This document shows, in pieces, positions 43,619 to 59,958 of a stretch of 64,000 nt of DNA (position 1 is the stretch's first letter; each line of letters begins with the position of its first letter). Source of the DNA: an uncultured Flavobacteriales bacterium (lineage in GTDB: Bacteria > Bacteroidota > Bacteroidia > Flavobacteriales_D > Sanyastnellaceae). Both the position numbers and the translations under genes were made by a program. A model generated the notes under the pieces. The model did no database searches. It was given only the letters and a program-made list of their open reading frames with translations, and was not told the DNA's origin. Location of the stretch: the NCBI GenBank assembly GCA_965657495.1, contig CBFHPD010000027.1:9888-73887 (forward strand). Direction: 5' to 3'.

Positions 43619-45778
43619 CTAGCGCTTGACCCACTTGGCGTTGAGCCGTTCGCCGGTGGCGAGCACCCACTGCAGGGTGTACGTGCCCGGCACGAGTCCG
43701 TCGAGTTGCAAAGTGGTGGCGCCCGTGCCGCGGTGTTGAGCGACCAATTGCCCGCGGAGGTCCACCACTGCGAGGGTCCAAGCCGCCGCGGAGTGCAGGC
43801 CACTCAGCCGCAGGGTACCGCCGGAGGGGTTGGGGCCGATTTCGAGGGAGGTGGCAGCGGAGGTTTCCGCGAGGCCGTTGGTGGCGCAGACGGTCACGTT
43901 GTAGGTGCTCGATGGCGCCTCGTTGGGGGTGTTTTCGTCGACCAGGATTTCACCGGTCGGGCCGGTGACGAGGTAGCCGCATTCTTCAGGGAAAACGCCG
44001 TTGTTGAAGACGAAGCTCAAGGCTTGGCCTTCCTCCACGGCAATGCGGGCGCGCGCCTCCGAGAATTCGAAAAATGCTTCGCCGGAGACCAAGCCGGGAA
44101 TCGTCGTCACCAGCTCTTCTTCCACATAAATGCCGAGCGAACCGTAATCCCAGCCGTCGCCATAGGTGTCGAACACGGTCACGTCCACGTACCCGCATGT
44201 GGGCTCGGGCCTGCACGGCTCGAGGCCGAAAATGGCGGGGGAGGCGTTGCTGCTGAAGTTACCAGCCCATTGCCAAACCAACGTCCCCTCCGCATCGATG
44301 ACCTCGAATGCCTCGCCTTGCACGCCATTTCCCGAGCGGATCAAGTTCACGAGGCTCCCTTCGTCCACCGCAAACGCGTAGGCATCGGTGTAGCCGCCGT
44401 TCAGGGTGGCCGTGGCAACGACCTCGCCGTCGACTTGCACGTACATCGGGGTTTCCCAGCCGTCTCCAGCGTTGTCGAACAGGTTGAGGGTCCACGTCCC
44501 GCAGGTTCCCACCGGGTTCGGGAAGGTGAAGGGCATGACGGCGTCCAGCACATGCACGACCCCGTTGTAGGCGAGCTGGTCGGGGAGTCCGACGGGAGCG
44601 CCATTCACCGCAATGTCACTGCCCGCGACTTCGATGGTTAGTGCCTCCCCGCCGTAGGAGAGGAGGACTTGGTTGTTGTAGAGCTCGGCAGCGAGCCATT
44701 CCGTTTCCACAATGTGCTGCTGTAGAATTTCTTCCATGTATTGCGAGGCGAGCAGTGCCTCGACGGAAGTGAAGCCGTTGGCCGCAGCGAAGTCGATCAA
44801 GGCCTGGTCGCTCGGAGCGAACACGGTAAAGGGGCCGGGAGCGGGCTCGTTGTCGTTGAGGACAGGTTGACCGCGAAGGTCGTCGTCGAGGAAGGCATCG
44901 AAAACGGCGGACTCGAACAGCGACAGGTCATCGCGGGTTTGGATCACGTCGAGGACTGTGGCGCTGGGGTAGCCTTCCGGCGCGAGGGTTTGGTTGATGA
45001 GGTGGACCACGCCGTTGTCGGCGGCGATGTCGGCGAGCAGGACCTGGGCCCCGTTGATTTCAATCCCTGCATCGGAGGTGGTGACGGAGAGGGTCTGGCC
45101 TTGCACCGTGGGCAGCTCCATGCCCGCGACCAGGTCGCTCGCTGTATACAGGCCGGGCACGATGTGGTAGGCGAGGGCATCGGGAAGGTCGTAGAAGGCC
45201 AGCAAGTCGAATTGGTTGAGGTTCATCAATTCGCCCACGGCCTCCACGGCCGCGTCGGTGGGGGCAAACACCGTGAAGGTGTCCACGCCAGCCAGCAGAC
45301 TTCCCCAATAGCTGTTCAAGGCCCAGCTGGTTTGCCAAGCCGTGTAGCCCTGCGCTTCGAAGTCGAGCTGGGTTTCGTTGAGGAGGTCGGTGAGGGTGTA
45401 GGCGTCGACGGTGATCTGGCCCACCATACCCAACTGCGCTTGCAAGCCGATGCTCGAGTCAAACTGATACACCCCGGGAACGTCAAAGGTCACGACCCCC
45501 ATGCACGTGCCTTCCACCGTTCCCTCCGTGGTGGCCAAATAAAAATCGACCGGGTTCCCGAAAGGCTCCCCGGTCAACGTGTTGGCGATGCCATTCACAT
45601 CGTGCGTCCCTTGCGCATTGACGAAGGCCACGCTCTCGCCCGGCGCGATGACCAGCTCGGAGGGGGCGAAATAAAAGTCGGCCACAGCGATGACGTGGTC
45701 CGCTTCACATTGTGACCAAGCTGAAGCCTGGATCAGCAGGGCCATGATGGCCGCAGCAACAAAGTGGATTCGGTGCAT
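43619..45778 (-). CDS. Secreted multidomain protein: cupredoxin-like N-domain, two FAS1 (fasciclin) domains, two GDGW-containing repeats, T9SS C-terminal sorting domain
   Basis: ATG at 45778. Signal peptide. FAS1 marks TVFAPTDAAV...NGVVHLINQTL and FTVFAPSDQAL...NGVVHVLDAV. Repeats FDNAGDGWETPMYV / FDTYGDGWDYGSLGIYV. The CTD is GPNPSGGTLRL...VVDLRGQLV...LVPGTYTL. Confidence 0.75.
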   Translation of the reverse strand: MHRIHFVAAAIMALLIQASAWSQCEADHVIAVADFYFAPSELVIAPGESVAFVNAQGTHDVNGIANTLTGEPFGNPVDFYLATTEGTVEGTCMGVVTFDVPGVYQFDSSIGLQAQLGMVGQITVDAYTLTDLLNETQLDFEAQGYTAWQTSWALNSYWGSLLAGVDTFTVFAPTDAAVEAVGELMNLNQFDLLAFYDLPDALAYHIVPGLYTASDLVAGMELPTVQGQTLSVTTSDAGIEINGAQVLLADIAADNGVVHLINQTLAPEGYPSATVLDVIQTRDDLSLFESAVFDAFLDDDLRGQPVLNDNEPAPGPFTVFAPSDQALIDFAAANGFTSVEALLASQYMEEILQQHIVETEWLAAELYNNQVLLSYGGEALTIEVAGSDIAVNGAPVGLPDQLAYNGVVHVLDAVMPFTFPNPVGTCGTWTLNLFDNAGDGWETPMYVQVDGEVVATATLNGGYTDAYAFAVDEGSLVNLIRSGNGVQGEAFEVIDAEGTLVWQWAGNFSSNASPAIFGLEPCRPEPTCGYVDVTVFDTYGDGWDYGSLGIYVEEELVTTIPGLVSGEAFFEFSEARARIAVEEGQALSFVFNNGVFPEECGYLVTGPTGEILVDENTPNEAPSSTYNVTVCATNGLAETSAATSLEIGPNPSGGTLRLSGLHSAAAWTLAVVDLRGQLVAQHRGTGATTLQLDGLVPGTYTLQWVLATGERLNAKWVKR

Positions 45779-45943
45779 CGTGTGATAACAAGCGGCAAAA
45801 GAATTTGGTTCATGCTGCATCCACGGTGCCGAACCAACCCGTTTGTTCATTCATCTTTTTCCTCACCCATTCACGATTTGACGTGGTTTTGGCGAGGGCG
45901 ATCACCAAACACCATAATAGGGTATTCGGAGCGTCCGGAGGGG

Positions 45944-46060
45944 TTAAAATCCGGCGTAGAGTGTGGCGATTTCCCCGCCTTCTGCGACGAGGAGCAAGGC
46001 CAGCGCACCGGCCGCGATGAGGAGGCGCCAGGCCCAGCGGGGGAGTTTAGAACGCATCAT
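45944..46060 (-). CDS. Unlisted 38-aa single-pass microprotein ending in LYAGF (candidate DltX-like acyl-shuttle peptide)
   Basis: Hand translation gives MMRSKLPRWAWRLLIAAGALALLLVAEGGEIATLYAGF*. Basic N-terminus, one TM helix, short acidic tail, Tyr 4th from the C-terminus and a terminal Phe. It overlaps the 3' end of the upstream gene by 14 nt in the same operon orientation. Confidence 0.4.
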   Translation of the reverse strand: MMRSKLPRWAWRLLIAAGALALLLVAEGGEIATLYAGF

Positions 46061-47120
46061 GGGCGAGGATTTTTTCGGCGATTTGGGCGGCCCCGAAGCT
46101 GCTGTGGTGCTGGTGGTCGCGGAATGCACCGGGCGTGTCGTTGAGATCGCGGGCGTCGATCCAGGGGAAGGGGGAGGCGCTGAGGATTTGGGCCAAATCC
46201 GCTTGCAGCCGCACATAACCCGCCTCCGCCTCCGGCGCATGGCTCCGCACGAACGGCGCGTTGAACGGCCCGAGGATGAAGGTCGCCTCGATGCCCCACG
46301 CGGCACAGGCCGCGATGAAGCCCTCGAGCTCGGCGGTCCGGGCCTCCAGCACCGCGGGATCCGAAGCCACGGGCTTGAACCATGCGTCGTGGTGAAAGTC
46401 CGCCAGCACCCCCCGCTCGAAATCGGTGTTCGGGTCCGGAGCGGTCGGCGGTTCGCCTTCCCACGGGCGGACCGGCGTGCCCAGGGGCTTGGATGCCACC
46501 CAGCCGCGCAGGTCTTTGAACCAGGCCTTGCGGGCACAGCGCAACAGGCCGGCGGGGTTGAGGCGCTGGGGCAGGGACAGGGCGGCGCGGCCCTCGGCGA
46601 TGGGGCGGGCGACGACAGCAGGCAGGCCGTCCGTGCCGTGGAGCAGCAGCGGATCCACATACCGCGACCAGTACGTCGGGTTGATGGGGCCGTGCTCCGC
46701 GTTCCAGTAGACCGGATTGATGTAGTAAATCAGTTGCAGACCGTTCAGCTGCTGGGCGTGTTGGGCCAAAACCGGCAGGTGCACGCCCGCCGTCCTTCCC
46801 GCTCCCGCAAGCACGGCAAACCGCGGCTCCACCCCGTTCAGGAAGTCCGGCCAGTTGCCGCCCGGCAGGCCCGTGGTCTCGGAGGTCCCGAGGCACAGCA
46901 CGCCATCGTGCAACCGCAGCGATTCGAGGAAGTGCGCCACCTCCGCATGGTCGTCATGCCGCCACGCCAAGCCGCTCACCGCGCGGTCCGGGGCCCCAGC
47001 CGGCGCCGTCGGACGGTACGCTGGGATGAGCCCGGGCCCGAGGATCAGGGCGGCCGCGAGGACCGCCAGGAGGAAGCGCCCGTGGGCGGCTTGGGATGCA
47101 GTTTGGCCTGCACGCTTCAT
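46047..47120 (-). CDS. Membrane-anchored DltD-like / SGNH-like acyl-transfer partner of the MBOAT protein
   Basis: The ATG at 47120 overlaps the MBOAT stop as ATGA. N-terminal anchor FLLAVLAAALILGPGLI, candidate nucleophile block LCLGTSETTG, and a candidate Asp/His block FRDHQHH near the C-terminus. The family call rests on context and motif layout. Confidence 0.5.
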   Translation of the reverse strand: MKRAGQTASQAAHGRFLLAVLAAALILGPGLIPAYRPTAPAGAPDRAVSGLAWRHDDHAEVAHFLESLRLHDGVLCLGTSETTGLPGGNWPDFLNGVEPRFAVLAGAGRTAGVHLPVLAQHAQQLNGLQLIYYINPVYWNAEHGPINPTYWSRYVDPLLLHGTDGLPAVVARPIAEGRAALSLPQRLNPAGLLRCARKAWFKDLRGWVASKPLGTPVRPWEGEPPTAPDPNTDFERGVLADFHHDAWFKPVASDPAVLEARTAELEGFIAACAAWGIEATFILGPFNAPFVRSHAPEAEAGYVRLQADLAQILSASPFPWIDARDLNDTPGAFRDHQHHSSFGAAQIAEKILAHDAF

Positions 47121-48301
47121 CGCATCACCGCTTGCCACCACTCGGCCCACGCGCCCAGCGGATAATGGAACATTCCCCAGCCCAGCGTGACGAACAGCCA
47201 CGTGCCCGCCACGCTCGCCGCCTCATACCCCGGCCCCTGCCACCTCGCCGGCCGCCAGCGCTCCCGCCACAGCTTGTTCACCACAAGCCCCACGCCGTGC
47301 CACGCCCCCCACAGCACGAAATGCAGCCGGTCCCCATGCCACAGCCCGCACACCAGGAACGTCACCACGTACGCCCCCGACGTGACCAGCAAGCGCCTCC
47401 CCCGAAGCGCCTCCCACCGGTTCATCCACCCGATGAGCGGCAAGAACACATACGCCCGCAAGAACCGCGAAAACGTCATGTGCCACCGGCGCCAAAACTC
47501 CCCCAAACTCCGCGATCCATACGGCCGATCGAAGTTCTCCGGCACCCGGAAACCCATCCACCGCCCCACGCCTATCGCGATGTCCGTGTACCCCGAAAAG
47601 TCCAACAAAATGAACGCGGAATAGGCGGTGAGGGACACCCCCATCGACGCCACGGGCCCCCACCCCACGGCTCCCCAATCCACCGCCCAAGGCCGCACCA
47701 CCGGCACCAAGACCAGCGTCTTGAACGCGCCCAACCCCACGCGCCACACCCCCGCCATCGCCCCGGCCACCTCCACCCGGCGCGGCCGGTGCGCTCCCCC
47801 GTAAGCGAAGTTCCGATACGTGTCGATCGGCCCCGCCAAAATCGTTGGAAAGAAGAACGTGTAGTTCAAAAAGCCCAGCACATCCGACCGCTCGATGCGC
47901 CCCCGGCGGTTCTCCACCAACCAATGCACCCACCGAAACAAGATGTAGGACAGCCCCAACTTCTCGACGCTCAAGACCGGCCCCTGCACCACCGGCTCGA
48001 GCGCCCCGTAAATCAGCGGGTAGTTCCGCACGCTGAACAACGCCACCAGCCCGCCCACCAAGGCCCCCAAGAGCCCAGCCCGCTTCCGCACGAGCACCCC
48101 GCCTCCGTAGACCAACAGCCCCAGCAGCCCCAGCACAATCAAGGTGTGCTCCCGCACAAGCGTCAGCAACACCAGCACGTTGACCACGAGCAAGGCCATT
48201 CCACGCACGTGCACGGCCCGCGGCGCCGCCACCCGCAATCCGTTGTAGGCGAGCACGCCAAGGAGGATGCCGAGGAACAGCTCGTAGGATTGGAACAGCA
48301 T
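47117..48301 (-). CDS. MBOAT-family membrane-bound O-acyltransferase (AlgI/DltB/PatA-like)
   Basis: FFPTILAGPIDTY, the invariant His context SLGEFWRRWHMTFSRFLRAYVF, and CGLWHG. Polytopic membrane protein. The C-terminus ...EWWQAVMR carries no Tyr motif. Confidence 0.8.
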   Translation of the reverse strand: MLFQSYELFLGILLGVLAYNGLRVAAPRAVHVRGMALLVVNVLVLLTLVREHTLIVLGLLGLLVYGGGVLVRKRAGLLGALVGGLVALFSVRNYPLIYGALEPVVQGPVLSVEKLGLSYILFRWVHWLVENRRGRIERSDVLGFLNYTFFFPTILAGPIDTYRNFAYGGAHRPRRVEVAGAMAGVWRVGLGAFKTLVLVPVVRPWAVDWGAVGWGPVASMGVSLTAYSAFILLDFSGYTDIAIGVGRWMGFRVPENFDRPYGSRSLGEFWRRWHMTFSRFLRAYVFLPLIGWMNRWEALRGRRLLVTSGAYVVTFLVCGLWHGDRLHFVLWGAWHGVGLVVNKLWRERWRPARWQGPGYEAASVAGTWLFVTLGWGMFHYPLGAWAEWWQAVMR

Positions 48302-48333: not shown

Positions 48334-48376
48334 AAAAAAGAAGCGCCCGACTCCCTTTTCAGGTCATCGAGCGCTT
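48334..48376 (-). terminator. Weak terminator-like element downstream of moeZ
   Basis: On the minus strand, AAGCGC...GCGCUU arms (48376-48371 and 48346-48341) are followed by CUUUUUU. The loop is long, so this is tentative. Confidence 0.25.
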
Positions 48377-48447: not shown

Positions 48448-49602
48448 TCAATACCGTGCGAGTTCGGGCGCCACGGCGGCTTGCCAGCCCAAGATGCCGC
48501 CCTCGAGGTTGTGCAGGTTGGTGAACCCGTGTTCGGCCTCGAGCAGGCGAATGGCCCGTGCGCTGCGGATGCCCGAGCGGCAGTGGACCACCACCGGCTC
48601 GTCGCGTGGGATGCGGTCCACGCTTTCCGGCAACGTGTCGAGTGGGATGAGCACCCCATCGAGGTGGGCGATGCCGTATTCGTAGGGCTCCCGGACATCG
48701 ATCACCGTGTGGGGCCGCCCCTCGGCCTGCCAGCGGGCGAGCGCTTCGGGGGAGATGCTGCGGACTGCGGGCTCCGGTGCGGTTTCGGCATTCAAACCGC
48801 AGAACTCCTCATAGTGGATGAGGTCGGATTGGGTCGGGTGGTCGCCGGTCAGCGGGTTGCCCGGGTGCTTGCGGAGCTTGACGGTCCGGGTGGTGAAGGT
48901 GGTGGCGTCAAACAGGTACAACCGCCCGACAAGGGGGTCGCCCACACCGCTGAGCACCTTGATGACTTCGAGTGCCTGAAGCGATCCGAGGATGCCGGGC
49001 AGCACGCCGATGACGCCGCCTTCGGCGCACGAGGGCACCAGGCCGGGAGGGGGGGGCGAGGGGAAGAGGTCCCGGTAGTTGGGCCCGCGTTCACCGCCTT
49101 TGAGTGGTGCGTTGAACACCGAACATTGCCCTTCGAACCGGTAGATGGACGCATAGACGTTCACTTTGCCCTCGAGCACACAGGCGTCGTTCACGAGGTA
49201 CCGCGTGGGGAAGTTATCGGTCCCATCGGCCACCACGTCGTAGTCGCGGACCAAATCCCGGGCGTTCTCCCGCGTAAAGGCCACGTTGTGCACTTCGACC
49301 CGGATGTGCGGATTCAGAGCCCGCAACCGCTTGGCCGCCGCCACAGCCTTCGGGGTGCCCACATCGGCCGTGGTGAACAGCACCTGCCGCTGCAAGTTGG
49401 TGTCGTCCACCACGTCGAAATCCACGATGCCGATGCGGCCCACGCCCGCCGCCGCCAAATACAGCAGCAGCGGACTCCCGAGCCCCCCTGATCCGATGAC
49501 CAGCACCGACCCTTCCTTCAGCCGCCGCTGCCCCTCGAGGTTGAACTCGGGGATGATCAAGTGGCGGCTGTACCGCTCGAGTTCTGCCTTGGAAAACGTC
49601 AT
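48448..49602 (-). CDS. moeZ: E1-like adenylyltransferase/sulfurtransferase (MoeB/ThiF domain fused to rhodanese; MoeZ type)
   Basis: YSRHLIIPEF, GSGGLGSPLLLYLAAAGVG and DxD..NLQRQ. C-terminal rhodanese with the active-site loop VVHCRSGIRS. Confidence 0.85.
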   Translation of the reverse strand: MTFSKAELERYSRHLIIPEFNLEGQRRLKEGSVLVIGSGGLGSPLLLYLAAAGVGRIGIVDFDVVDDTNLQRQVLFTTADVGTPKAVAAAKRLRALNPHIRVEVHNVAFTRENARDLVRDYDVVADGTDNFPTRYLVNDACVLEGKVNVYASIYRFEGQCSVFNAPLKGGERGPNYRDLFPSPPPPGLVPSCAEGGVIGVLPGILGSLQALEVIKVLSGVGDPLVGRLYLFDATTFTTRTVKLRKHPGNPLTGDHPTQSDLIHYEEFCGLNAETAPEPAVRSISPEALARWQAEGRPHTVIDVREPYEYGIAHLDGVLIPLDTLPESVDRIPRDEPVVVHCRSGIRSARAIRLLEAEHGFTNLHNLEGGILGWQAAVAPELARY

Positions 49603-49886
49603 GGCTGCGCAGGAATTCCGCCGGCGATGGCCGGGATGATGCTGATGTCGGTGCCGGTGTCCACCGGCGTGTTCACGCCTTCAAGCGCCTCGATGTCCTC
49701 GTCCTCGACGTACACGCGGATGAAGTGACGCAGGGTGCCATCGGCATCGAAGAGGTGGGGCTGCAGGCCCGGGTGCGCTTCGGCGAGCGCGTTCAAGACG
49801 CCGCCCACGTGGGGGGCGTCGGCGACAAACGTAGCGGCTCCGGCAGTGAACTTGCGGAGCGGGGTAGGGATGATGAGTTGTGCCAT
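49599..49886 (-). CDS. cysO: ThiS/MoaD/CysO-family sulfur-carrier protein with a Gly-Gly followed by a 5-residue tail
   Basis: ATG at 49886. MAQLIIPTPLRKFTAG... shows a beta-grasp size and pattern. The C-terminus, hand-translated, is IIPAIAGG-IPAQP*. The stop overlaps the moeZ ATG as ATGA. Confidence 0.7.
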   Translation of the reverse strand: MAQLIIPTPLRKFTAGAATFVADAPHVGGVLNALAEAHPGLQPHLFDADGTLRHFIRVYVEDEDIEALEGVNTPVDTGTDISIIPAIAGGIPAQP

Positions 49887-49890
49887 GGGA

Positions 49891-50364
49891 TCATGGGTTT
49901 GAGGTGGATAAACGAGGGGAAACAGCTGCACCTTCGCGCAGCAGAAACAAGGGCTCTTCCTGAAAGAAGCGCCCGGAATCGCTCAACTGCCAGGAGCGCG
50001 CGTGGTGCACGCCTTCCGGGTAGACCGAAGCGATGAGGTAGGAAAAGAAGGGCAGGGCCACGCGGAGGTCGTGGATGCTTGGCACCGCCGGATGGCGCGG
50101 GTGGCTGTGGTAAATGCCAAGCAGTTGCCGGCCCGTGGCAAGGGCGCGCCGTTCCGCGCGCAGGTAATCGCGCTCGGTGATGGCAAAGCGCCGCCGTTGG
50201 TCGCCGGTTTGGGCATTGTCAACGGGCAGGGCCTCGGTGATGTGCCGCCCTTGCGCACCTTCCAGGCCAAACAAAAACCCGCAGCACTCATTCGGAAACG
50301 CCCGTTCCGCATCCGCCCGCACCGCATCCCACGCGCCCGGCTCGAAGTTCAATCGCGCTTTCAT
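49891..50364 (-). CDS. mec: JAMM/MPN+ metalloprotease (Mec-type)
   Basis: ATG at 50364 inside ORF 49891..51303. Glu in NECCGFLFG and the complete JAMM motif HSHPRHPAVPSIHD (HxHx7SxxD). Confidence 0.8.
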   Translation of the reverse strand: MKARLNFEPGAWDAVRADAERAFPNECCGFLFGLEGAQGRHITEALPVDNAQTGDQRRRFAITERDYLRAERRALATGRQLLGIYHSHPRHPAVPSIHDLRVALPFFSYLIASVYPEGVHHARSWQLSDSGRFFQEEPLFLLREGAAVSPRLSTSNP

Positions 50365-51272
50365 GACAGCCGAGCCAAGGTGTGGTGGTACTTGCTCGCA
50401 TCGTCGGCCAACACGGTGACCACCACGCCCCGGTCGAGCCGCTCCGCCACGGCCACCGCCCCGGCGACGTTCGCGGCGGCCGACGGCGACAGCAGCAGCC
50501 CAGCAACCTTCGCCGCGCGCCGCATCATGGCGTAGGCGGCGTCGGTGGAGACCGCTTCGAAGGCGTCCGCGAGGGCCGCGTCGAAGATGCCGGGAACCCG
50601 GGCGGTTTCGAGGTGCTTCCAACCTTCGAGGCCGTGCAGCGCGGTTTCGGGTTGCAGGCCGATGCACGTCACGTCGCCGCGGCTGCGCAGGCCCCGGGAC
50701 GTTCCGGTGAAGGTCCCGGTGGTGCCGAGCCCTGCCACGAAATGCGTGATGCGGCCGGCGGTTTGGGCCCAAATCTCCGGAGCGGTCGACGCCTCGTGCG
50801 CCCGCCAGTTCGCATCGTTGTTGTACTGGTCGACGTAGGCGTAGCGGTCGGGCGCTGCGGCTACGAGTTGGCGGGCGGCATCTTGCGCGCCTTCGGTGGC
50901 TTCGAAGGGGCTGGTCAGGTGCAGTTCGGCACCGAGCCATTGCAGGATACGCTTCCGTTCGGGGGAAGCGTTTTCCGGCATGCACAGGGTTAGCGGGATG
51001 CCAGCGGCCGCGCAGCATGTGGCGTAGGCGATGCCGGTGTTGCCGCTCGTGGCATCGAGCACACGGCGCCCCTCGAGGTGCGGGGCGACCTCGGTCAGGA
51101 TGGCGTGGGCAGCGCGGGCTTTGACGCTGCCGCCAAGCTGCTGCCATTCGACCTTGGCGTGGATTTCGACCTTGGGGTGGGGCTCGAGGGCGTGGAGCCG
51201 AAGGAGCGGCGTGTTGCCGACGTGGGCTTGGAGGTGTTGGAGCCGGGTGAGCGGCGATGACGGAGGGTGCAT
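50361..51272 (-). CDS. cysM: PLP-dependent cysteine synthase (CysM/CysK family)
   Basis: GNTPLLRL, PLP lysine in GGSVKARAA, SGNTGIAYA, and GLGTTGTFTG. Confidence 0.85.
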   Translation of the reverse strand: MHPPSSPLTRLQHLQAHVGNTPLLRLHALEPHPKVEIHAKVEWQQLGGSVKARAAHAILTEVAPHLEGRRVLDATSGNTGIAYATCCAAAGIPLTLCMPENASPERKRILQWLGAELHLTSPFEATEGAQDAARQLVAAAPDRYAYVDQYNNDANWRAHEASTAPEIWAQTAGRITHFVAGLGTTGTFTGTSRGLRSRGDVTCIGLQPETALHGLEGWKHLETARVPGIFDAALADAFEAVSTDAAYAMMRRAAKVAGLLLSPSAAANVAGAVAVAERLDRGVVVTVLADDASKYHHTLARLS

Positions 51273-57099: not shown

Positions 57100-58638
57100 T
57101 CAGTGTTTAAAGTGCCGCACGCCGGTCATGTACATGGCCAAATCGTGGTTGTCGCAGTAATCGATGCTCAACTGATCTTTGATCGATCCGCCCGGTTGGA
57201 TGACCGCAGTGATGCCCGCTTGGTCCGCCAATTCCACGCAATCGGGGAAGGGGAAAAACGCGTCCGAAGCCATCACCGCACCGTCGAGCGACAGCCCAAA
57301 GGCCTCCGCCTTCACCACCGCTTGCTTCAGCGCATCCACGCGCGAGGTCTGCCCGGTGCCACTCGCCACCAAGGCGCCGTCCTTCGCAAACACGATGGTG
57401 TTCGATTTGGTGTGCTTGGCCACTTTCATCGCGAAGACCAAATCCCGCACCTCACCAGCCCCCGCTTCCCGCTTCGTCACGCACCGGAGCGCTTCCGCTC
57501 CCTCCGTCGCATCGTCCACTGCCTGGACCAAAAACCCGTTCAACGCCGTCCGCACCGAATGCTGCGGCATGGCGGTCGGTTTGATGCGCAACAAAATCCG
57601 GTTCTTCTTCTGCTGCAAAATGGCCAAGGCCGCTTCCGAGAATTCTGGCGCGATCACCACTTCGGAGAACAAGTCGGCCATCGCGGCAGCGGTCGCCTCA
57701 TCAATGGGCCCGTTCGCAATCAAGATTCCGCCGAAGGCAGAAACCGGGTCCGACGCCAAGGCCGTCCGGTACGCTTCTTCCATCGTTTCCCGGGTCGCCA
57801 AACCGCACGCGTTGTTGTGCTTCAAGATGGCAAACGTCGGCGCATCGCCTTCGAATTCGCGCATGAGCTGCACCGCGGCATCCACGTCGAGCAGGTTGTT
57901 GTATGACAGCGCTTTTCCGTGCAATTGGTCGAACAGGGCGGCGAGGTCGCCGTAGAACCGGCCCGGCTGGTGCGGGTTTTCTCCGTAGCGCAGGGTTTGG
58001 CCATGCAATTCGCTCACATTCAGGGTGTCCAAGGCGTCCAGTCCGGCGTCCTCCGCCATCCACGCATGGATGCGCGTGTCGTAGTGAGAACTCACGCGGA
58101 ACCCGTGGGCCGCCAGCCGCTTGCGGTCCGCGAGCGAGCTCACCCCGTCGCGCTCCTGCAGCAACGCCAGCAGGTCGGCGTACTGCGCTTGGCTCGGCAC
58201 CACCACCACGTCCTGGTGGTTCTTCGCGGCCGCGCGGATCAGGGCGATGCCACCGATGTCGATCTTCTCCACGATGGCTTCGCGCGCCGCGCCGGAAGCG
58301 AGTGTCTCCTCAAACGGGTACAAATCCACGATGACGCAGTCCACGTTCGGCAGCCCGTAGGCCTTCATTTCTTCCTGGTCACTGGCGAGCCCGCGGCGCC
58401 CGAGGATGCCGCCGAACACCTTCGGATGGAGCGTCTTGACGCGCCCGCCGAGGATGGACGGGTAGTCCGTCAGCGACTCCACCGGCACGACTTCGGCCCC
58501 CATCGCTTCGATGGCAGCTTGGGTGCCGCCGGTGGAATAAATGGTCACGCCCAGCCGCTGCATTTCAGCAACGATGGGCGCAAGGCCTTCCTTGTTAAAC
58601 ACAGAAATGAGGGCCGATTGGATGCGAACGTCGGACAT
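57100..58638 (-). CDS. purH: Bifunctional AICAR transformylase / IMP cyclohydrolase
   Basis: ATG at 58638 inside ORF 57100..59910. ALISVFNKEGL, GGRVKTLHPKVFGGIL, KHTKSNTIV and ASDAFFPF. Confidence 0.93.
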   Translation of the reverse strand: MSDVRIQSALISVFNKEGLAPIVAEMQRLGVTIYSTGGTQAAIEAMGAEVVPVESLTDYPSILGGRVKTLHPKVFGGILGRRGLASDQEEMKAYGLPNVDCVIVDLYPFEETLASGAAREAIVEKIDIGGIALIRAAAKNHQDVVVVPSQAQYADLLALLQERDGVSSLADRKRLAAHGFRVSSHYDTRIHAWMAEDAGLDALDTLNVSELHGQTLRYGENPHQPGRFYGDLAALFDQLHGKALSYNNLLDVDAAVQLMREFEGDAPTFAILKHNNACGLATRETMEEAYRTALASDPVSAFGGILIANGPIDEATAAAMADLFSEVVIAPEFSEAALAILQQKKNRILLRIKPTAMPQHSVRTALNGFLVQAVDDATEGAEALRCVTKREAGAGEVRDLVFAMKVAKHTKSNTIVFAKDGALVASGTGQTSRVDALKQAVVKAEAFGLSLDGAVMASDAFFPFPDCVELADQAGITAVIQPGGSIKDQLSIDYCDNHDLAMYMTGVRHFKH

Positions 58639-58710
58639 GTGGAGTGGATTTGAGCGCGCAAATCTACGATTTTCCTTCACGCAGCCGAAAGGAAACATGT
58701 AGCTTTGGGC

Positions 58711-59958
58711 ATGCTTTGGATGCGCCTGCTTCGGGAGAGTTTCTTGTTCGCTTGGTGGGCGATTTGGGCCAACAAATTGCGGACCTTCCTTTCGCTCCTC
58801 GGGGTGATGGTCGGCATTTTCATGATCTCGGCGGTGTTCACCGTGGTGGACTCGTTGGAGGACAACTTGAAGGACACGTTCAACATGTTGGACGAGGACG
58901 TGATGTTCGTCCAAAAATGGCCATGGGCATCCGGCGGTGAGGACTACCCGTGGTGGAAATACGTCCAACGCCGCGAGCCCACGGAGCGGGACATGGAGGC
59001 CCTTGCCGATCGCTTGACGCTCGCACAAGCCATCACCTACCAGGCGAACGACCGCACGTCCCCCGAGGCCGGCAACAGCCGGTTCGAAGGCGCCCGCGTG
59101 ACCTCCGTGACCCACACCTATCCCGACGTCATTTCTTTGAAAATAGCCGACGGCCGCTTCTTCACCGAGGTGGAAAGCCGGGCCGGCCGACCCTTGGCCC
59201 TCATCGGTGCCGAAATCGCGCTCGGCCTGTGGGGCCGTCAAGACGTGGTGGGGGAGGTGTTCACCATCAAGGGGCTGAAGCTCGAAGTCATCGGGGTATT
59301 TGAAAAGGAGGGTGCGTCCATCATCAGCGACGGCATGGACCGGGTCATCATGATGCCCGTGACCTTCGCCCGCCGCATTTCCGACGTGGACCGCGCGGGA
59401 GGCTCCATCCTTGTCAAGGCCGCAGACGGCGTGACAAATGAAGCGCTCAAAGACGAGATCACCCAGCAGTTTCGGGCGGTGCGGCGCTTGCGTCCGGCGG
59501 AGGACAACGATTTCGCCATCAACCAAGTGAACATGCTGTCGTCCATCATCGACGGCATCTTCGCTCAGTTCGAAATCGGCGGCTGGTTCATTGCCATTTT
59601 CGCCATCCTCGTGGGGTGCTTCTCCATTGCGAACATCATGTTCGTGTCCGTGCGGGAACGCACGCGCATCATCGGGGTGCAGAAGGCCATCGGTGCGAAA
59701 GGCACCTTCATACTGACCCAGTTCCTGTTCGAAGCCGTGGCCTTGTGTTTGTTCGGGGCCGGTTTCGCGCTCGTGGCCATAGAAGTGCTCATCGCTGTGG
59801 TGAACGCCATGGACCTCGGTTTGCAACTGGCGATTCGGCCAGGCCGCATCCTCGTTGCGGTGGGCGTGGCAGTGTTGTCCGGGTTGATTGCGGGGTTGGC
59901 TCCGGCCCAAACCGCAGCGCGCATGGCCCCGGTGGACGCGATGCGCTCCAATGGGTGA
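58711..59958 (+). CDS. ABC-transporter permease of the FtsX/MacB type, with no adjacent ATPase
   Basis: ANKLRTFLSLLGVMVGI, a large periplasmic loop, then three C-terminal TM helices with the RERTRIIGVQKAIGA motif. The track start at 58705 is a TTG, so I prefer the ATG at 58711. Confidence 0.75.
   Translation: MLWMRLLRESFLFAWWAIWANKLRTFLSLLGVMVGIFMISAVFTVVDSLEDNLKDTFNMLDEDVMFVQKWPWASGGEDYPWWKYVQRREPTERDMEALADRLTLAQAITYQANDRTSPEAGNSRFEGARVTSVTHTYPDVISLKIADGRFFTEVESRAGRPLALIGAEIALGLWGRQDVVGEVFTIKGLKLEVIGVFEKEGASIISDGMDRVIMMPVTFARRISDVDRAGGSILVKAADGVTNEALKDEITQQFRAVRRLRPAEDNDFAINQVNMLSSIIDGIFAQFEIGGWFIAIFAILVGCFSIANIMFVSVRERTRIIGVQKAIGAKGTFILTQFLFEAVALCLFGAGFALVAIEVLIAVVNAMDLGLQLAIRPGRILVAVGVAVLSGLIAGLAPAQTAARMAPVDAMRSNG

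Follow-up and report, generated by a model that had tools for sequence, protein, structure and literature searches.

The locus described here raises the question of what an envelope acylation system of the Dlt type represents when genes for an activating ligase and a carrier protein are missing from its surroundings, and of which donor would then supply its acyl groups. It consists of three minus-strand genes within a 64,000-nucleotide stretch of contig CBFHPD010000027.1 from an uncultured Flavobacteriales bacterium; this whole stretch is referred to below as the window. The genes encode an MBOAT O-acyltransferase related to DltB, a DltD-type protein of the SGNH family and a DltX-like microprotein, they carry invariant catalytic and shuttle residues, they are strictly linked, and ligase and carrier genes are missing beside them. 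We lean, at about an even chance, towards reading the trio as a split-shuttle MBOAT-SGNH acyl relay of the Dlt type, situated at the inner membrane and in the periplasm and fed by a carrier that would be encoded elsewhere. A sequence-only reading had described the locus as a Dlt-like module of three stacked, overlapping genes. All three open reading frames (ORFs) were verified at the following positions, overlapping consecutively as ATGA and then by 14 nt, and each element of the proposed module found support, with qualifications concerning the donor and the histidine that had been singled out.

47117..48301, minus strand: DltB-like MBOAT O-acyltransferase, 394 aa (Pfam, NCBIfam, PDB, AlphaFold2 (AF2)/Foldseek)
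46047..47120, minus strand: DltD-type SGNH acyltransferase, 357 aa (homologues, AF2, Foldseek, Pfam matches of relatives)
45944..46060, minus strand: DltX-like single-pass microprotein, 38 aa (ORF intact in 43/43 distinct loci)

The 3' end of the MBOAT gene reads GTG ATG CGA TGA, the ATG being the start codon of the DltD-like gene. The mechanical ORF of the latter extends upstream to a GTG at 47201, and homologues of 357 aa (P0001 and P0006) favour the ATG start. Related loci were collected by a profile scan of genomes with an alignment of the DltD-like protein, which returned 40 loci; together with loci from an exact-protein look-up these gave 43 distinct loci. All 40 scan loci come from metagenome-assembled genomes (MAGs), nearly all of them of Bacteroidota (Flavobacteriales, Bacteroidales, Crocinitomicaceae, Cryomorphaceae and Saprospiraceae), which agrees with the diderm Bacteroidota host proposed earlier; the closest is from a Flavobacteriales MAG, with 91% identity. 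When the flanking ORFs of 44 loci were clustered all against all, the trio genes were kept across 42-44 loci and no other family occurred in more than seven, so the trio is an autonomous three-gene module. At the distant loci L004, L006, L007 and L050 the neighbouring genes are unrelated to those of the window.

The product of the first gene matched the Pfam MBOAT family (PF03062; E=4.7e-20, 72.6 bits, cutoff 27), and its sole NCBIfam match was LTA_dltB (TIGR04091). A sequence search of the PDB returned the DltB entries of Streptococcus thermophilus as the only solved relatives (E=4.8e-40). Structure prediction with AF2 from 72 family sequences gave a model (predicted local distance difference test (pLDDT) score 92.7) that aligned with DltB over its full length in Foldseek (template modelling (TM) score 0.80, E=2.6e-16), with eukaryotic MBOATs ranking next. 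Two histidines show no variation among the 72 family members: His274 in FWRRWHM (47480-47482), the equivalent of His289 of S. thermophilus DltB, and His322 in GLWHG (47336-47338), the equivalent of His336, the signature catalytic histidine. The sequence-only reading had pointed to the histidine of FWRRWHM as invariant; that much is correct, but the canonical catalytic residue is His322. The protein ends in ...EWWQAVMR and has no Y-x-x-F, and a terminal Y-x-x-F was likewise found in 0/120 database relatives and 0/37 locus MBOATs. Family members measure approximately 394-402 aa, versus 435-494 aa for nine sampled MBOATs that have a fused motif and no linked carrier. The identification of this protein as a DltB-like enzyme of DltB size, lacking a shuttle motif of its own, is thus borne out.

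The second protein possesses an N-terminal membrane anchor, with a helix at residues ~6-31 followed by an alpha/beta domain in the AF2 model (pLDDT 91.7), and its catalytic domain is predicted from this model to be periplasmic. It has 34 homologues, of which those about 35% identical bear PF04914 (Pfam DltD), one being labelled DltD by NCBI; across the family, Pfam DltD is matched at E<=0.01 by 21 of the 35 members (best 3.5e-12). Foldseek comparison of the AF2 model with the PDB gave DltD crystal structures as all of the best 12 hits (E 2e-6 to 4e-5), with PatB and generic SGNH esterases appearing in the list only at ~1e-2, about 1000-fold worse. A profile of the family found no DltD among PDB sequences by sequence alone, and the DltD relationship is visible only through the Pfam matches of relatives and the comparison of folds. 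When the profile was aligned with Enterobacter cloacae DltD, GTSE and GASE corresponded, as did the D..H residues. The blocks G78-T-S80-E, G106-A-G-R-T, N135-P and D335-x-Q-H338 are invariant in the 35 sequences and are predicted to be the SGNH blocks, with a triad of Ser80 (46881-46883), Asp335 (46116-46118) and His338 (46107-46109). Both the DltD-type fold and the invariant Ser, Asp and His residues on which the earlier assignment of this protein depended were therefore found. The subfamily is small and well separated, comprising 137 representative clusters at E<=1e-3 among 1.84 billion proteins.

The third gene encodes the 38-aa protein MMRSKLPRWAWRLLIAAGALALLLVAEGGEIATLYAGF, which ends in T-L-Y35-A-G-F38. 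It has a basic N-terminus, one transmembrane helix and an acidic tail; on average, family members carry 3.3 Lys/Arg in the first 12 residues and 2.0 Asp/Glu in the last 13, with a 13-residue hydrophobic core between. This distribution of charge fits an N-in/C-out topology, with a cytoplasmic N-terminus and a periplasmic tail. An intact ORF of 36-40 aa, overlapping or directly following the DltD-like gene, is present in 43/43 distinct loci, although it was left uncalled in most of them and, where called, is listed as a hypothetical protein. In an alignment of the C-termini from these loci, Tyr(-4), Phe(-1) and Ile/Val(-8) occur in 43/43, Asp/Glu(-9) in 41/43 and Ala(-3) in 38/43; position -6 is Tyr/Phe in 33 and Thr/Cys in ten, the window copy having Thr. 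The tail consensus is D-I-x-Y-[IL]-Y-A-N-F, and the Tyr is kept where the partner protein has fallen to 27% identity. The separate microprotein ending in Y-x-x-F that the sequence-only reading had picked out is therefore conserved, with an unbroken frame throughout. It has been shown biochemically that the FXYXXF acyl-shuttle motif of DltX and of the PatA C-terminus bears an acyl-Tyr intermediate (PMC12148441). Defined functionally, a DltX-type protein is a single-pass N-in/C-out protein with an F-x-Y-x-x-F end and an invariant Tyr, and the microprotein corresponds to this, with Tyr/Phe or Thr/Cys at position -6. From its sequence features it matches the FXYXXF acyl-shuttle architecture, its gene is real and conserved, and by analogy Tyr35 (45956-45958) is predicted to be the acyl-shuttle residue.

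A fused Bacteroidales MBOAT, from Phocaeicola massiliensis (L061:3144-4625), has a last transmembrane helix and tail (…LLLVALIYLVIQIKSSDIQPFIYFQF) like the free microprotein (…LLVYLLMYxxxxDIxYIYANF), and of all tails and DltX sequences compared with the microprotein profile, this tail matched best. The likeness hints at a fission or fusion relationship between the two forms.

With regard to activation, no ORF for an adenylating enzyme or a carrier was found in the 64 kb window with five phmmer probes (two adenylating enzymes, a DltC-like carrier, Escherichia coli AcpP and Bacillus subtilis DltC; E<=10). For the other loci the search covered flanks of 10 kb on either side, and adenylation and carrier genes were absent from 39/43 distinct loci, so that the earlier statement that none lies nearby holds well beyond the window. 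The DltC-like, AcpP and B. subtilis DltC probes also found no stand-alone carrier in the flanks of the Bacteroidota loci, those with an adenylation-peptidyl carrier protein (A-PCP) didomain aside. The exceptions are three Bacteroidales loci (L027, L030 and L040) and L008. In the three Bacteroidales loci, a gene for an amino-acid adenylation and PP-binding didomain and a gene for an LpxL-family acyltransferase lie downstream of the microprotein. At L040:5959-8699, and at the equivalent positions of L027 and L030, these are a 598-aa A-PCP didomain gene and an overlapping LpxL/Lip_A_acyltrans gene between the trio and a resistance-nodulation-division (RND) efflux operon. The gene pair resembles a fused AlmE-AlmF plus AlmG, as in the lipid A aminoacylation cassette.

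L008 is the most distant relative; its trio is oriented divergently to a complete DltA-MBOAT-DltX-DltD-DltC-like operon. The region (L008:3077-11310, Logan SRR17828891) thus contains two divergent Dlt-like modules, one arranged DltA-MBOAT-49aa-DltD-DltC-like and the other MBOAT-DltD-37aa. In the full operon, Asn replaces both conserved histidines of the MBOAT (RWN, WNG), and WNG also replaces the catalytic WHG in the dlt-like MBOAT of E. cloacae plasmid pGX1Z-1L (L064:3204-4322).

Two types of MBOAT-SGNH system have been described, namely Dlt, which has a separate DltX, a ligase and a carrier, and the others, which have a fused motif, use acyl-CoA (coenzyme A) and have no microprotein (PMC12148441). 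For comparison with both, approximately 15 outgroup MBOATs (L058-L071) were hand-picked from plasmid matches and fetched from the plasmid records. A bootstrapped neighbour-joining (NJ) tree resolved three groups, consisting of canonical or carrier-linked Dlt MBOATs, the trio family, and fused-motif MBOATs; the trio family, including the L008 trio, was supported at 100% and the fused-motif bipartition at 97.5%. On this grouping, the trio MBOAT does not fall among families with another, characterised set of partners, as the sequence-only reading had allowed it might; it belongs to a clade of its own, nearest DltB in fold.

The same sequences differ on the donor side of the enzyme. DltC docks on S. 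thermophilus DltB at a horizontal helix, HC (Met302, Val305, Ile306, Met309, Lys312 and Arg317; PMC11035591). Residues ~286-302 of the trio MBOAT form a long DltB-type segment at the position where DltC docks on DltB, and in 156/156 trio-family MBOATs the spacing between the two histidines is 47-48 and PLGG is absent. By contrast, fused-motif MBOATs without a linked carrier (9/9 sampled, including Neisseria gonorrhoeae PatA) show Y-[IV]-Y-I-[PS]-L-G-G followed by an eight-residue deletion at the HC position, with a His-His spacing of 40 (measured in 8/9). The DltB and carrier-linked MBOATs sampled (Limosilactobacillus oris, Bacillus cereus, an Enterococcus faecalis fragment, E. cloacae plasmid, L008, and Sinorhizobium meliloti with an adjacent acyl carrier protein (ACP)) are all of the long form, with a spacing of 47-53. 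The eight-residue indel between the conserved histidines could be a predictor of donor type; the PLGG and spacing-40 feature is derived from nine sampled sequences and is not a published criterion.

Two of the plasmid records deserve mention on their own account. On S. meliloti plasmid pMl9 (L071:2988-7594), a 522-aa MBOAT has both a fused C-terminal PFLYQGF motif and the long DltB-type segment. The genes after it encode a 409-aa protein with the annotation TonB-dependent receptor, an acyl carrier protein and a large member of the HAD family. On B. cereus plasmid pb1 (L058:3225-4391), a gene annotated dltB (388 aa) follows a TetR regulator and has no further dlt genes recorded around it, an isolation that may be an annotation gap of the incomplete PLSDB gene table.

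In common with the Gram-positive Dlt system (DltX/A/B/C/D), the trio has a DltB-type MBOAT of ~400 aa that carries no fused motif, a separate single-pass microprotein with a C-terminal x-x-Y-x-x-F tail, an N-terminally anchored SGNH protein of DltD fold with a Ser-Asp-His triad, and the long segment at the carrier-docking helix. It differs in that dltA and dltC are absent from the operon (and from within 10 kb in 39/43 loci), in its gene order (B-D-X versus X-A-B-C-D), in having mostly Y/T/C and not F at the first motif position, and in that all three proteins fall under curated equivalog thresholds and the MBOAT lies in a separate clade. The host is also a diderm Bacteroidota without teichoic acids, whereas Dlt D-alanylates teichoic acids. 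The trio therefore appears to work like Dlt but is no operon-level member of it, since dltA, dltC and teichoic acid are absent.

With the PatA/PatB and AlgI/AlgJ/AlgX-type systems the trio shares a diderm host, the lack of a dedicated ligase and carrier, and an MBOAT with a periplasmic SGNH partner. Tyr-based shuttle chemistry would, by analogy, be shared with PatA, the tail of N. gonorrhoeae PatA (FIYANF) being nearly identical to that of the trio family (YIYANF). In the fused systems, however, the shuttle is carried by two extra C-terminal transmembrane helices of the MBOAT, whereas in the trio it lies on a separate microprotein; the trio MBOAT lacks the PLGG/eight-residue-deletion form; and, unlike PatB and AlgX, its partner has a DltD fold. 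As the motif is unfused and the PLGG form absent, the trio is not of the PatA/AlgI type. Further close parallels in diderm hosts are complete dlt-like operons of Gram-negative bacteria such as those of pGX1Z-1L (dltD - 40-aa ORF - MBOAT - AMP-binding - ACP) and L008, which likewise encode a DltD, a DltX-like microprotein (…HFEYQKF in pGX1Z-1L) and a DltB-sized MBOAT. Unlike the trio, these possess their own adenylating enzyme and carrier, and their MBOATs group with canonical DltB.

In the relay favoured here, a cytoplasmic phosphopantetheine thioester would supply the DltB-like MBOAT with an acyl or aminoacyl group, which would pass through the His274/His322 tunnel of the enzyme onto Tyr35 in the periplasmic tail of the microprotein. 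The tail would then carry the ester across to Ser80 in the DltD-type SGNH protein anchored in the membrane (Ser80-Asp335-His338), and this protein would esterify a hydroxyl of a periplasmic or outer-leaflet envelope molecule. We infer this order of transfers by analogy with the biochemistry of DltB/DltX/DltD and PatA/PatB. As is well established, Bacteroidota are diderms without teichoic acids, so the acceptor must differ from teichoic acid; candidates are peptidoglycan, lipopolysaccharide (LPS) or lipid A, a glycerol-containing lipid, and a glucan.

As to the donor, we lean slightly, at close to an even chance, towards a carrier protein acting in trans, which may be dedicated or housekeeping, because the MBOAT keeps the DltB-type carrier-docking segment. 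The trio moreover adjoins adenylation and carrier genes in two lineages (L008; L027/L030/L040). An acyl-CoA donor would be nearly as likely as a carrier. The stand-alone character that the sequence-only reading considered possible would hold in that no ligase or carrier is linked to the trio, but the donor could be a carrier encoded elsewhere, and the docking segment points that way.

Several observations weigh against a relay of this kind, and in particular against a carrier as its donor. Canonical dlt operons keep dltA and dltC, whereas neither the window nor the flanks of the great majority of trio loci contain adenylation or carrier genes. Sister loci of L027, L030 and L040 lack the A-PCP/LpxL-like pair, the RND pump coming directly, and for this reason the pair may be an independent AlmEFG-like cassette. 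The DltC-contact positions of the trio MBOAT read L, I, G, N, E and R, with 3/6 conservatively kept, and the HC-equivalent segment varies within the family; the correlation between indel and donor is itself based on the ~15 hand-picked outgroup sequences. Scores against curated families are low: the LTA_dltB match reaches 187.6 bits, under the equivalog cutoff of 375, and the DltD-like protein of the window scores 13.2 bits against PF04914 (E=0.058, threshold 22.7). The DltD-like protein of L004 reaches 23 bits against TIGR04092, where the cutoff is 150. The window microprotein has no match to Pfam DltX (PF12459, gathering threshold 25 bits) at E<=10 and no significant NCBIfam match. Taken alone, then, only the MBOAT exceeds its Pfam threshold; relatives of the other two proteins do match, with Pfam DltX aligning weakly from end to end with 2/10 microproteins (E=0.002 and 0.048; 18.1 and 13.6 bits). 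Finally, the evidence for the relay in this family consists of sequences and structure models.

The most serious competitor, in line with the stand-alone system of the sequence-only reading, is the same relay drawing its acyl groups straight from acetyl-CoA or a different acyl-CoA, after the manner of PatA/PatB, with no ligase or carrier and O-acetylating a ubiquitous envelope polymer such as peptidoglycan or LPS; we consider this a substantial possibility, if short of an even chance. It would account for the lack of a linked adenylation or carrier gene in 39/43 loci and in the whole window, and for the fact that no other gene is kept beside the trio, as expected for a donor that is a universal metabolite. 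The DltC-contact residues being only partly kept, in a segment that is variable in the family, suits this explanation too, as does the position of the trio after the mreBCD-PBP2-rodA cluster in the window and its closest relatives. It is also in line with characterised systems, in that all bacterial MBOAT-SGNH systems described without a carrier use acetyl-CoA (PMC12148441). On the other hand, the trio MBOAT has a segment of DltB length and lacks the PLGG/short loop of the 9/9 sampled CoA-type fused MBOATs, it lies outside the fused clade with its 97.5% bootstrap bipartition, and the linkage to elongasome genes is confined to one sublineage.

It is very improbable that the trio is what decay has left of a dlt operon, or that it acts mainly as an esterase or remodelling enzyme without transmembrane acyl transfer. 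Scores short of the curated equivalog thresholds for DltB and DltD and the absence of dltA and dltC from the window and most flanks would be in keeping with decay, and SGNH proteins are often hydrolases, esterases being among the lower Foldseek matches. Against this, catalytic and shuttle residues do not vary among 72 MBOATs, 35 DltD-like sequences and 43 microproteins, none of the three ORFs is broken in any of the 43 distinct loci, from several Bacteroidota orders, and a 37-aa ORF is not expected to survive such divergence without selection. That the microprotein is a chance ORF beside an ordinary two-component MBOAT-SGNH pair is effectively refuted by conservation, for even if most gene callers miss it and the window copy lacks a significant Pfam or NCBIfam match, it keeps its position and a length of 36-40 aa in 43/43 loci, its Tyr(-4), Phe(-1) and D-I-x-Y-[IL]-Y-A-N-F tail have been kept while the DNA and the partner protein diverged to 27-35% identity, and the MBOAT itself is without a shuttle motif.

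The genomic context of the trio in the window is, in order, mreB, mreC, PBP2 and rodA; cysM, JAB, ThiS-like and ThiF/rhodanese genes; the trio; a gene for a fasciclin type IX secretion system (T9SS) protein; and sucB and sucA, the last two on the strand opposite to the trio. Its relative L001 has this order minus the cys cluster and the fasciclin gene. The linkage to mreBCD-PBP2-rodA was considered as a clue to peptidoglycan and set aside, as it is limited to the sublineage of the window and absent in L004, L006, L007 and L050. The rfb genes that the sequence-only reading had noted nearby are indeed present, an RmlA-like nucleotidyltransferase being the nearest at ~11 kb from the trio and RmlD following at ~12 kb, but neither is kept beside the trio in related loci. 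Upstream of the MBOAT gene, promoter scans (sigma-70 and the Bacteroidota -7 motif) gave nothing usable, and the following feature was recorded:

48346..48363, minus strand: terminator-like hairpin with T-run, in the interval that separates the MBOAT start from the ThiF/rhodanese gene upstream (consensus scan only)

This hairpin may mark where the three-gene unit is bounded upstream; the evidence is weak, because such sites are no more numerous in the region than expected from shuffled sequence.

The GC content of the window is 63%. A 400-aa plus-strand ORF (45963-47165) lies antisense to the DltD-like gene and, given its overlap with a gene that has 34 homologues, is read as a high-GC antisense artefact. 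A similar cause probably underlies the mechanical ORF of 936 aa for PurH (AICARFT/IMPCHase and MGS; 57100-59910, minus strand), in which the Pfam domains begin only at about residue 443; the L001 orthologue is 512 aa long, and the long N-terminus would be an artefact of ORF extension at high GC.

The minus-strand genes at 48448-51272 form a CysO-type sulfur-carrier cysteine synthesis cluster (PALP cysteine synthase, Prok-JAB, ThiS-like carrier, and ThiF with rhodanese), which relative to L001 synteny is an insertion between rodA and the trio. Downstream, 93 nt from the microprotein, a 743-aa protein (43619-45850, minus strand) with two fasciclin domains and a T9SS C-terminal sorting domain is the sole match in the 64 kb window to a home-made hidden Markov model (HMM) of that C-terminal domain (CTD). 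The same HMM gave 35 matches in 745 kb, with at least one in 18/44 loci; an association between the trio and T9SS cargo was dropped, as an excess over the genomic background could not be shown.

No description of a Bacteroidota DltX-like system or of the trio family was found in literature searches. The family breaks the dichotomy between Dlt and fused-motif systems: it belongs to a diderm phylum, keeps its shuttle on a separate and strictly conserved microprotein, and has neither a ligase nor a carrier linked to it. Its machinery can be recognised from homology, and the absence of a ligase and a carrier may mean no more than that their genes lie elsewhere in the genome. Tentatively, and with somewhat less than even confidence, we propose a third MBOAT-SGNH architecture, widespread in uncultured Bacteroidota, in which a split Tyr shuttle without a dedicated ligase or carrier would use acyl-CoA or a shared carrier and place an ester on a non-teichoic acceptor. 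On the side of annotation, a shuttle gene of 36-40 aa is overlooked by most gene callers. If the proposed architecture is true, an acetyl, aminoacyl or other ester that is undescribed in Bacteroidota would be present on peptidoglycan, LPS/lipid A or a periplasmic glycerol-containing molecule. Characterisation of the trio would tell whether a DltB-type MBOAT can use CoA or a shared carrier, would provide a compact three-protein model for the Tyr relay, and would define an envelope ester relevant to antimicrobial-peptide resistance, to phage and lysozyme sensitivity, and to host interaction.

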